Shown: positions 32,821-36,311, numbered from the stretch's first letter. The stretch: 64,000 nucleotides of DNA from Escherichia coli (GCF_003334305.1 NZ_QOWS01000011.1), one strand, 5' to 3'. Translations and numbers: made by a program. Notes: a model not told the origin generated them from the sequence alone.

Positions 32821-35320
32821 TCACACCGAACGCGATTCAGGAGGAACTGTTTGGTAAATAGCACCACCGGATCTTGGGGACGCTGTGATTATTACAGTAT
32901 TGCTATCACCGTCATTTTTGAATGTCACTTTACCAGTAGCATCAACGCCTACCCAGGAGGCCGAGCTTGAAAACGAATAATCAGCCGCCGTTTTTCCTGG
33001 TGCAAAGTTGTCATTATTCAACTGATAATACGCCCCGGTAAATCCCTGCGAAGGGAATGAAGCTGTCGGTAGGTTTGCACCATTCACTGACACTGTACCG
33101 GTCATTGGTCTGGTTTCCGCGCTAATGAATTCTATCGTGGTACTCAGGCCCGCCTGATGAACACCATTCAATACGGGGATCAGCGTTGCGATACCCTCTC
33201 CGTCTCCTGTAACAGTAGCTTTGTAATCACCGTTGATATTTTGACTGTAATCAATTGCGCTAATTTTCATATAGGGCACGTTTGTACCTGATTGCACAAA
33301 TTCCATCCCTTCAGAAACTTTGATCGGATTGCCTGATATATCGTGCAGAACAAGATGTAGCTCAGCACTATCGGTAAAGTCCCCTTTCAGTGATGACTGG
33401 TTGTTCTTAAGGATGGACTGCGAGGCGTCTGCTGGGACTGCCACTAGCGATATATCTACTGTTTGCATTCCACCTGCGCTTGTGACTGTGCTTACAGTGA
33501 CGCTCCCCGTTATCGCTCCTTTCACGCTTGTTGTCGCGATTCCGTTTTGATCGGTCACTGCTGTTAATGACGTTAATGTGGTGGAGCCGCTTTTTAAGGC
33601 GAAGTACACAGTGAGACCTTCGATCAGGTTACCACTGCCATCCTCAACCGTTGCCTTTAAGGTACTTAAATCACTGTTGGTGGCGGCGATAGTCGACGGA
33701 TCAGCGATAAAGCTAGCAACATGTGCGGTGCTTGGGTTGCCAGTAACCTTCACGGTTGTCTGTGTCTGTATTGTGACGCCGTTATGGAACGATGCAGTCA
33801 CCGTATATGTACCGACTTTATTGCTGGTCAGAACGACTGGAGCCTGACCTGAAGAGTTGGTTCTCACTTTTCCGCCACTTAACGTCGCACCTTCTAGCGT
33901 TACGCTAAAGTTGATGACCTGACCCTCCACTGGAGTGCCATTTGCAGAGGTTAGCGTTGCCGTCAGAGTAGCGCCTTTAGGAGCATTGACACCGATAAGC
34001 GGACTGGACGTGAGTGTCAGTTTTTCATCAATAGCCTCCAGTTGTTTCTCAAGTGAAGCTCCATTCGCTAGGGATGCTTTTACAGTATACGAGCCGTTTC
34101 TTTCAGGCGTCATGGTGACCTCGGCTACTCCCTGCGTATTAGTAGAGACCGTATTCTGGCTGATGATCATTTGCGAGGATGGCGCTGCACTGAATGTCGC
34201 GGGTTGATGCGTCACCGGGTTGCCAAACTGGTCGTTAACGTGAGCTTTAACTGCTATGTCTTGTGCGACCATGACCTGACCTTCAGGTATCTCCTGACTG
34301 GTAATCGTCGCAGAATTAACATCTACCTTGGCATTCAGTAATCGCGAGATGACTTCAGTAGGTTTATCTGCCAGAGAGGCTGAAACTGTTTTTAGTCCGA
34401 CCTCGGTGCTTGTCACAAGAATTTCAGCGAAAACCTGATCATCCGTTTCAACGCTGGTGCTGCTTAGCGTGACGGAGGTTCCACGGAAATTAACTTTTAT
34501 ACCTTCTACTGGGTTGCCGTTTCCATCAGTCACTGTTGCCTGTAGCCTGGTCATTCCAATGTTATTGGCGATGAAATTGTCCTCGGTAACGTTAAGATTA
34601 ACCTGCGCAGTGAGCGTATCCGCAGTAAAGTTCACCACCAACTGCTCACTCTTACCGCCAACCATCGATGCTGTCACGGTATGAGCGCCTGCTTTTGTAC
34701 CTTTCAGCGTGACTTTCGCTTTGCCATCGGCATCAGTAACCGCTTTGTCGCCATCGCTCAGCGTGAAGTTCGCCTTCACATCTTCCGGTAGAGTAAATGT
34801 TACCTCAGTGTTGGCTATCGCATTGCCCTCTGTATCAGCGACGGTGCTGTTAGTGTCGTGAGATCGTTATTGTCGGCAATCACCGGATCCTTCGAGGCTG
34901 CCAGCGTGATTTCAGCATTCGTGACGTTCGGCACATAGTTCACTGTTTGTTGCATCGAATCGCCATTTTCGAGGGTTGCCGTCACGGGAGTTCTTCAGGC
35001 TGAAATCTTCATCCACGCCCAGCGTGATTCTTGCGGTACCGAAGCGGCTTAACCAGTCTGTCATTACCCCTGAAGCCTGAGAAGAGGCCCATCCACGTGC
35101 TATGTTTGCCGCTTGCTCGCTGTTCATATCTTCGGCGAGCAGAGATCCAATTAGCTGTGAAGTACTGGCTATCTGTTGCTCAAGGTTGCCACTGCTGTTA
35201 CCCGGCGGCGGGGTTAAATTTTTTTCACTAACTTGTGCCTGGACATCCAGTTCATCACCCGGGCGGACATTACGAACAAACGTACGAAACTGGTTGAGTT
35301 TGCGTAACAGGGGGGTATCT
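32821..35320 (-). pseudogene. yeeJ: yeeJ remnant (inverse autotransporter adhesin, intimin/invasin family): LysM-proximal segment plus Big-domain repeats, lacking signal peptide, beta-barrel and C-terminal domain
   Basis: Two ORFs (34912-35718 and 32821-34779) separated by a frame break; LRKLNQFRTF...EQQIASTSQLIGSLLAEDMNSEQAANIARGWASSQASG matches recalled YeeJ N-terminal region; 652-aa ORF is Big-domain repeats; full YeeJ is ~2350 aa. Confidence 0.7.
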
Positions 35321-36275
35321 ATAATTTGTTGCACAGGACAAATATATCTGGCTTCTGTACAGAGTCTTAAATTTTGACCATAAATAAAACCGTCCCTGTC
35401 AAGCATGCATAGTTTATCAAGTAGGTCTCCCACAAACTGCCTGAATTTTATTTTTCCATTAAAAGTTTGTATCTTCTTAAGTATCACAGGAGACTGGAAA
35501 TAGACCGATAGTAGGATGTTGCCACTCAAGGCATGACGATAAATATCGCTAGGAGTAATTTTTTGTTTTATGGCTTTGGTAGTGATCTCAACTGCTTCCG
35601 TTATAGTGACCCATGTTGACATATAATGAGTTATAAGCAATGGCTGATATTTTTTTGACATAATATTATCTCCTTCTACACAACAATTCGTTCCGTTAAG
35701 GAAAAAGATTGGTGTCACAAGTATTTATTTATGATTAATCAGAGGGTTTATGACAGAGAAAAGGATGTATATTTCTGAGTAAACATGTACAGGCCTATGG
35801 GGTGACTATTTAATGAGTAAATGCCGAATGATTTTCGGGGTGATGATTATAACTTGAGGAAAAATCCCAGCGTGGTTTGAGTAGTGTACCTGAGTGATAT
35901 TTGTGTTATGTATGCATTGATTGCAGCAGAATAAATATAGTTCAGGCTAGTATAGTTTATGGTAGCTATGAGAATATATAATCTATTTTACCTATAAAAT
36001 AATTTATATGTATGGGGTTGTTTTTTTAGGTTGTTTGTCTGTGCTTTTATATTCTGGAGATGTGCCTTGTATATAGGATTGTTTGTTGGTTGTATTTTTT
36101 AATGTTGCACTGTTGTGAATTTTTATTTTGATATGATTATTTCTTTAGTATAAGGAGAGAAAGGAACGAGAAAGTTAAATCTATTTATCCTAATCGCAAT
36201 TTCATTGTTTAAATAATCACTATGGATTAATATTTTTTGCGACTCTGCTGAGTTACTGGTTTTAACTAGTGGTGT

Positions 36276-36306
36276 AAAAGGGATACCTTTTCGGTATCCC
36301 TTTTAC
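36276..36306 (-). terminator. rho-independent terminator of fyuA
   Basis: aaaagggatacc ttttc ggtatccctttt hairpin directly 3' of the fyuA stop, followed by a U-run on the transcript. Confidence 0.7.
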
Positions 36307-36311
36307 AATAA

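Follow-up and report, generated by a model that had tools for sequence, protein, structure and literature searches.

The DNA between fyuA and yeeJ in the analyzed window (the whole 64,000-nucleotide [nt] stretch of Escherichia coli DNA, of which positions 32,821 to 36,311 are treated here) is very probably the fyuA-side (right-hand) deletion scar of the common E. coli yersiniabactin HPI, left by one event in an HPI/ICE ancestor integrated at asnT. Observed directly were the breakpoints, the missing content, the derivation of the AT-rich DNA from the island, and how widely the junction is distributed. The scar is a known, ordinary feature of the E. coli HPI, and its reading as a deletion is already published (PMC2606025). 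Added here are the nucleotide-level breakpoints, a truncated ICE gene, and an in-frame chimera, which we did not find in the published HPI descriptions compared.

To place the junction, each side was compared with its undeleted counterpart. In BLAST against a K-12-type locus, yeeJ homology stops at 35308, which is yeeJ nt 276, and the same endpoint was obtained with BHUCD01 yeeJ. ICE homology, which runs at ~99% from the fyuA side, also stops at 35308, both in the ICE of ECO11 and in eight ICEKp loci. A three-way alignment of the window, K-12-type yeeJ, and the ECO11 ICE shows codon 118 of an ICE ORF joined to yeeJ nt 276 at 35308|35309, close to the position near 35310 given in an earlier note on this DNA. 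The microhomology at the junction is 1 base (C), which lies inside an imperfect 7-of-10 similarity patch. Judged by its sequence, the junction is the product of illegitimate recombination and not of a repeat-mediated event. The features on the yeeJ side are as follows.

35308..35309 (no strand): deletion junction, placed by three-way alignment.
34986..35308 (minus strand): yeeJ nt 276 to ~607 (residues 92/93 to ~199), from BLAST and from BLASTP against K-12-type YeeJ residues 88-203.
34984..34986 (no strand): scar of a 3693-bp internal yeeJ deletion, with the frame shift that ends the chimeric ORF, from BLAST against BHUCD01.
32821..34984 (minus strand): rest of the yeeJ remnant, Ig-like repeat region, from BLAST against BHUCD01; a pseudogene according to PGAP.

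The segment at 34986-35308 begins midway through the LysM region, of which it has the distal half, and runs through the linker into the beta-barrel domain, where it covers the first ~60 positions. Its identity is 92.5% to K-12-type yeeJ nt 276-607 and 99.7% to the BHUCD01 allele. Pfam places a weak LysM match at residues 79-99 of K-12-type YeeJ and IAT_beta at residues 144-419. The cut thus lies upstream of IAT_beta and inside the weak LysM match, in keeping with the "LysM-proximal segment" proposed from the sequence beforehand. The loss of about 90 codons proposed at the same time is borne out by 275 missing nt (91 codons plus 2 nt). An intact yeeJ 5' end, named in advance as one of the findings that would speak against a deletion, is absent: neither the missing 275-nt 5' end nor the 313-bp asnT-yeeJ spacer has a match anywhere in the window.

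The remainder of yeeJ is also damaged. Positions 34511-34984 match 4834-5307 of the BHUCD01 locus (L017) and positions 34986-35308 match 9001-9323 of it; the part at 32821-34984 has suffered a further, repeat-mediated loss of 282 bp, and its 3' end is replaced. PGAP labels the remnant a pseudogene, [quoted passage not shown] With its frameshifts and internal deletions, no single frame holds a signal peptide, LysM, a complete IAT_beta barrel, and an Ig-like passenger. The remnant is homologous to the K-12 inverse autotransporter adhesin YeeJ (PMC5595812), with 92-95% identity to the K-12 allele and 98-100% to the BHUCD01 allele. In contrast to K-12 YeeJ, it has lost the promoter, the signal peptide, the first 91 codons, a stretch of ~3.7 kb that includes most of the beta-barrel and the proximal repeats, one 282-bp repeat unit, and the 3' end. 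A divergent yeeJ allele unique to HPI-positive strains was considered and rejected, because the same allele is present, at full length, in the HPI-negative BHUCD01. Martinez-Gil et al. 2017 (PMC5595812) relate the frequent truncation of yeeJ to its location next to asnT.

On the other side of the junction lies the ybt core. ORF sizes of 673, 525, 267, and 3163 aa, among others, match fyuA, ybtE, ybtT, and irp1, so that the core ends in fyuA, in agreement with the annotation of the genome that is 100% identical over 34800-36400; ybtE, ybtT, and the rest of the yersiniabactin locus come after fyuA in the window. The features on this side are as follows.

36312..38333 (minus strand): fyuA, yersiniabactin receptor gene, last of the ybt core; a 673-aa ORF, so annotated in a genome 100% identical over 34800-36400.
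36273..36307 (minus strand): likely fyuA intrinsic terminator hairpin with a perfect 15-bp stem and a 5-nt loop, from an inverted repeat and an RNA fold.
35662..36272 (no strand): AT-rich intergenic HPI/ICE spacer between fyuA and the 308-aa ICE gene; GC 0.285-0.365, ~99% identical to the ECO11 ICE and the ICEKp loci.
36015..36027 (no strand): scar of a 208-bp deletion in the spacer, aligning to both flanks of a 208-bp segment.
35309..35661 (minus strand): first 118 codons of the 308-aa ICE gene (WP_000039781-type); 116/118 aa identical to the ECO11 protein.
34912..35661 (minus strand): chimeric 249-aa ORF of 118 aa from the ICE, 107 aa from YeeJ, and a 24-aa out-of-frame tail, from ORF translation.

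The hairpin at 36273-36307 folds with a dG of -24.9 kcal/mol (z -6.56; 0 of 200 shuffles were as good). A simple terminator scan missed it because only four U follow the stem. Beyond it the DNA is AT-rich, as the earlier note had described: GC is 0.285-0.375 across 35300-36300 vs ~0.50 in the yeeJ remnant and 0.53-0.62 in fyuA/ybt. The description of the same stretch as non-coding and devoid of a long ORF had to be abandoned, since a 249-codon minus-strand ORF opens at ATG 35661 and only 35662-36272 is intergenic; the 5' part of an ICE gene takes up a third of the stretch. Within this spacer no ORF exceeds 26 aa, Rfam gave no match at E ≤ 1, and, the terminator aside, the repeats are short and occur in two copies only; promoter-like and terminator-like sites were not above shuffled expectation (promoter-like, 1 found vs 4.2 expected). 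That AT-rich sequence follows the iron-uptake genes is common to all HPI variants (Paauw et al. 2010, PMC2801613).

The AT-rich DNA belongs to the island and not to the core genome, as had been proposed: it is 99% identical to ICE-type HPI and ICEKp and is absent from HPI-negative E. coli. A 208-bp segment is kept in ECO11, the eight ICEKp loci, and one further locus (L004), and is missing from the window. It is flanked by the imperfect repeats GGGT(G/T)GTTTTTTT, and the sequence indicates that its loss is a second, small deletion. More than one event has shaped the locus, with the 208-bp spacer deletion and three further deletions in yeeJ.

The undeleted state is represented by ECO11, which carries an intact ICE at the same chromosomal position as the island in the window. 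In the orientation of the window, the order in ECO11 is a 7077-bp intact yeeJ, attR, type I restriction-modification/HNH cargo, ardC, mobC, the coupling protein (T4CP), virB11-virB1, traR, DUF2857, alpA (xis), the 308-aa gene, and fyuA. The attR is a free-standing 17-mer 313 bp upstream of yeeJ. The 308-aa protein (WP_000039781.1) is encoded by the gene that comes first after fyuA, in the same orientation and just before xis/alpA. The interval absent from the window is 27.1 kb long in ECO11 (L019 22297-49396) and contains xis, the virB T4SS, mobBC, the cargo, attR, the spacer, and the yeeJ 5' end. The eight ICEKp loci show the same order as ECO11 (fyuA, 308-aa gene, AlpA, DUF2857, TraR, VirB), and their alignments with the 118-codon fragment, at 99% nucleotide identity, end at 35308. 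The proposal that a deletion took the fyuA-distal end of the island together with the start of yeeJ is thus supported by a genome in which both are still present, and PMC2606025 concludes the same.

Compared with the ICE-type HPI (ICEEc1 of ECOR31, HPI-ICE of UMN026/ECO11, Klebsiella ICEKp), the window shows ~99% identity from fyuA through the terminator and the spacer to nt 354 of the 308-aa gene. In contrast, codons 119-308, xis/alpA, DUF2857, traR, the virB T4SS, mobBC/T4CP, ardC, the cargo, attR, and 208 bp of the spacer are missing. The window does not carry a self-transmissible HPI-ICE: yeeJ follows directly after the ICE homology, no xis, virB T4SS, or mobBC/oriT module is found there, and the right repeat is absent. 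The closest match is the common, or "normal-type," HPI that E. coli carries at asnT (Schubert et al. 2009, PMC2606025), which is the same object: its ybt core ends in fyuA and is followed by an AT-rich tail, the right repeat is lost, and backbone is also deleted. We found no substantive difference from it. In the HPI of Yersinia pestis/pseudotuberculosis, the ybt core is likewise followed by an AT-rich right part (PMC2801613), as in the window. As far as the sources describe it, the Yersinia HPI is still able to excise and has both repeats as well as hef/xis (PMC6202445; Lesic 2004 as cited in PMC2801613).

The ICE gene fragment gives rise to the chimeric ORF. It starts with ATG 35661, preceded 7 nt upstream by GGAGA (35669-35673), and the last base of its codon 118 is the shared base 35308. 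The ORF crosses the junction in frame, its residues 119-225 correspond to YeeJ residues ~93-199, and it stops at 34912-34914. The last 24 residues are out of frame because the 3693-bp yeeJ deletion shifts the frame. In the genome that is 100% identical over 34800-36400, PGAP annotates the chimera as WP_000039788.1, "inverse autotransporter beta domain-containing protein," and an identical protein is encoded on at least 1000 contigs. It retains only positions 3-64 of the 279 of the IAT_beta model (Pfam) and has no signal peptide, and therefore it cannot be an adhesin.

The parent of the ICE part belongs to a well-conserved family of ~300-316 aa, with 343 proteins at E ≤ 0.001 and named matches from several Enterobacterales genera. 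One member, 99% identical, is filed under Yersinia pestis (NCBI nr); its contig is 1.6 kb long. The 308-aa protein has no match in Pfam, NCBIfam, or PADLOC and a PHROG match at chance level only; nothing was found in the PDB by Foldseek or in PDB sequences by profile search. It is probably a DNA-binding protein of the ICE excision/regulation module.

The chimera most likely arose as a functionless by-product: the signal peptide is absent, the LysM region is cut to half and the beta-barrel to about a fifth, and the tail is out of frame. Could it instead be an expressed, functional gene, for example a DNA-binding ICE fragment kept by selection? We consider this highly improbable. That the ORF is intact calls for no selection in so recent an island (≥99% identity in 2154 genomes), and the two differences that separate the 118 codons from the ICE gene are nonsynonymous. 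The most conserved part of the parent protein, the C-terminal 190 aa, is lost from the chimera, and its C-terminal tail is out of frame. When modeled alone, the retained 118-aa fragment reaches a pLDDT of 48 vs ~85 for the same residues in the full-length model. Promoter-like sites in the region are not above chance, with 1 found where 4.2 were expected. Two further proposals have only a slim chance of being true. The chimera may be expressed and, with the putative MerR/Xis-like winged helix of the 308-aa protein, act as a truncated regulator; separately, the island plus ~10 kb of backbone may be excisable via the 17-mers in asnU/asnV, given Xis in trans from a second ICE. If expressed, the chimera might interfere with the excision or establishment of incoming ICEKp/ICEEc1-type elements.

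The distribution of the junction was determined in 5426 complete E. coli genomes. The AT-rich segment is present in 2269 of them, always adjoining fyuA in the records sampled, and 2154 carry it at ≥99% identity. The same junction, counted when at least 80% of 34800-36400 was found in one piece, occurs in 2046 genomes (~38%). The ICE type, recognized by an intact 3' part of the 308-aa gene together with alpA, was detected in 175. The junction form accounts for ~92% of the islands that keep the region. An assembly artefact was rejected as an explanation, the junction being common to 2046 complete genomes.

A single shared-base junction in more than 2000 genomes fits a single ancestral event, and this is what we infer. 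The neighborhood of the asn tRNA genes is prone to recombination, and truncation of yeeJ is common (PMC5595812), which could favor a hotspot at which the junction arose repeatedly in different lineages. Against this, a microhomology of 1 bp offers no sequence basis for recurrence at the same nucleotide, the 2046 genomes share the junction together with the linked 3.7-kb yeeJ deletion, and Schubert et al. concluded the same (PMC2606025). We therefore regard repeated origin as having next to no probability. The nature of the progenitor bears on the size of the loss, which may have been ~27-35 kb if the progenitor was an ICE and a few kb if it was a Yersinia-type HPI already without the transfer module. 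The latter is possible, although we consider it unlikely. A Yersinia-type HPI already devoid of the conjugation module would have had to lose only a few kb in the final step: the 308-aa gene beyond codon 118, hef/xis, a few ORFs, attR, and the start of yeeJ. The 308-aa protein filed at 99% identity under Yersinia pestis (NCBI nr) speaks for it, as do the several independent small deletions at the locus and the Y. pseudotuberculosis/pestis HPI, which shares int and xis with ICEKp and is without conjugative machinery (Lam et al., PMC6202445). However, an ICE-type HPI exists at asnT beside an intact yeeJ in E. coli, so that a one-step origin is possible. A peptide-pattern scan of genome contigs with the 308-aa protein returned no relative. 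A degenerate DNA pattern for the FyuA C-terminus, applied to genome contigs, returned only K. oxytoca, K. michiganensis, Raoultella, and S. diarizonae; in these loci, the DNA downstream of fyuA is unrelated to the window beyond ~36300.

Under the single-deletion reading, the ancestor would have been an HPI/ICE integrated at asnT, with fyuA, the AT-rich spacer, the 308-aa gene, xis (alpA), the right-arm genes, and a 17-bp attR adjoining yeeJ. One illegitimate recombination, using 1 shared base, would then have fused codon 118 of the 308-aa gene to yeeJ nt 276. Lost between these points would be xis, the right arm, attR, the 313-bp asnT-yeeJ spacer, the yeeJ promoter, the signal peptide, and the first 91 codons. 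What the border retains of the island is the fyuA terminator, the 5' third of the 308-aa gene, and between them a spacer of 611 bp that has itself been shortened by 208 bp. Without attR and xis, Int/Xis excision at the island's own ends would not be possible, and spread would be vertical or via homologous recombination of the flanks only. We met no evidence that contradicts a deletion.

Excision of ICEKp, the layout of which has been defined, requires xis, int, and 17-bp repeats at both ends (Lam et al. 2018, PMC6202445). A search for the 17-bp direct repeat over 32700-36400, proposed together with the deletion, found none, consistent with the loss of attR. Allowing ≤3 mismatches, all copies of the 17-mer CCAGTCAGAGGAGCCAA in the window lie in asnV (22634), asnU (25043), and asnW (26928), and no right-hand repeat (attR) was detected outside these three genes. 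The copies in asnU (25043-25059) and asnV (22634-22650) have the same (direct) orientation and lie 10-13 kb away. Since they are direct, immobility of the island depends on xis being lost too and not on the loss of attR alone. The earlier note had tied immobility to attR; it stands insofar as attR and xis are both gone and the literature agrees, but it is not absolute in principle, given the 17-mers in asnU and asnV. In Enterobacter hormaechei, Paauw et al. (PMC2801613) saw modules located between asn tRNA genes being co-excised by Int. The immobility of the island is itself taken from the literature. The backbone to the right of the island (yeeJ, a GT9 gene, shiA, amn, asnW, asnU, asnV) has the order expected for asnT. 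Insertion at asnT is based on this gene order and on the literature, the left end of the island (int, asnT/attL) being located beyond the window, whose last bases still belong to the ybt locus.

The nucleotide-level breakpoints, the 5' third of an ICE gene within the "AT-rich tail," and the fusion may help annotation; they leave the overall picture unchanged. According to Schubert et al. 2009 (PMC2606025), a unique deletion at the fyuA border also hit the adjacent genome and fixed the island, and the HPI then spread by large-fragment transfer and homologous recombination. The inability of this virulence island, the most widespread one in extraintestinal E. coli, to mobilize itself is accounted for by the scar. 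Hence, the HPI is considered to spread with large chromosomal fragments that are transferred and then recombine homologously, a view that has been in the literature since 2009.

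The yeeJ segment retained next to the yersiniabactin high-pathogenicity island (HPI; window 34986-35308) showed a two-peaked distribution of identity across E. coli genomes. It was at least 99% identical in 1970 genomes and 90-95% identical in 2872, and few genomes had intermediate identities. The HPI-linked yeeJ remnant is a distinct yeeJ allele. At least one strain without the HPI, BHUCD01, carries an intact copy of the same allele. This pattern is consistent with co-transfer of the flanks together with the island (PMC2606025).

Compared with the full-length BHUCD01 allele, the 5'-deleted yeeJ remnant carries three additional lesions:

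34984-34986: internal deletion of 3693 bp
34511-34540: loss of 282 bp between 30-bp repeats, corresponding to one Ig-like unit
32842-32908: last 498 bp of yeeJ replaced by an unrelated 67 bp

A family-9 glycosyltransferase gene (31578-32693) adjoins yeeJ at the position of yeeL. Its ORF is intact in the window and in a genome that is 100% identical to the window over 34800-36400, whereas in the K-12-type and ECO11 loci the gene contains an internal stop.

On the island side of the junction, the fyuA-distal spacer (AT-rich island DNA between fyuA and a gene for a 308-aa protein) also differs from that of ICE-type islands. At 36015-36027, 208 bp (GC 0.28) is missing in comparison to all ICE-type sequences examined. 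This deletion is flanked by the imperfect repeats GGGT(G/T)GTTTTTTT and, among the records sampled, accompanies the truncated island type. Between 35700 and 36200, the spacer shows marked strand asymmetry: the plus strand is G/T-rich, with a GC skew of +0.40 to +0.51 and numerous TTGTTTG-like runs. Neither a repeat family (repeat search) nor an Rfam match explaining this asymmetry was detected. In some other genomes, the spacer separating fyuA from the 308-aa gene contains IS elements:

L005 (an ICEKp locus), 8994-9962: DDE transposase
E. coli EC04: IS1

Three asn tRNA genes of the window contain the 17-bp HPI attachment core:

22634-22650: core in asnV
25043-25059: core in asnU
26928-26944: core in asnW

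Among these, asnU and asnV are oriented like asnT/attR of the reference loci. Given this shared orientation, both are candidate alternative recombination partners that the integrase of the island could potentially use.
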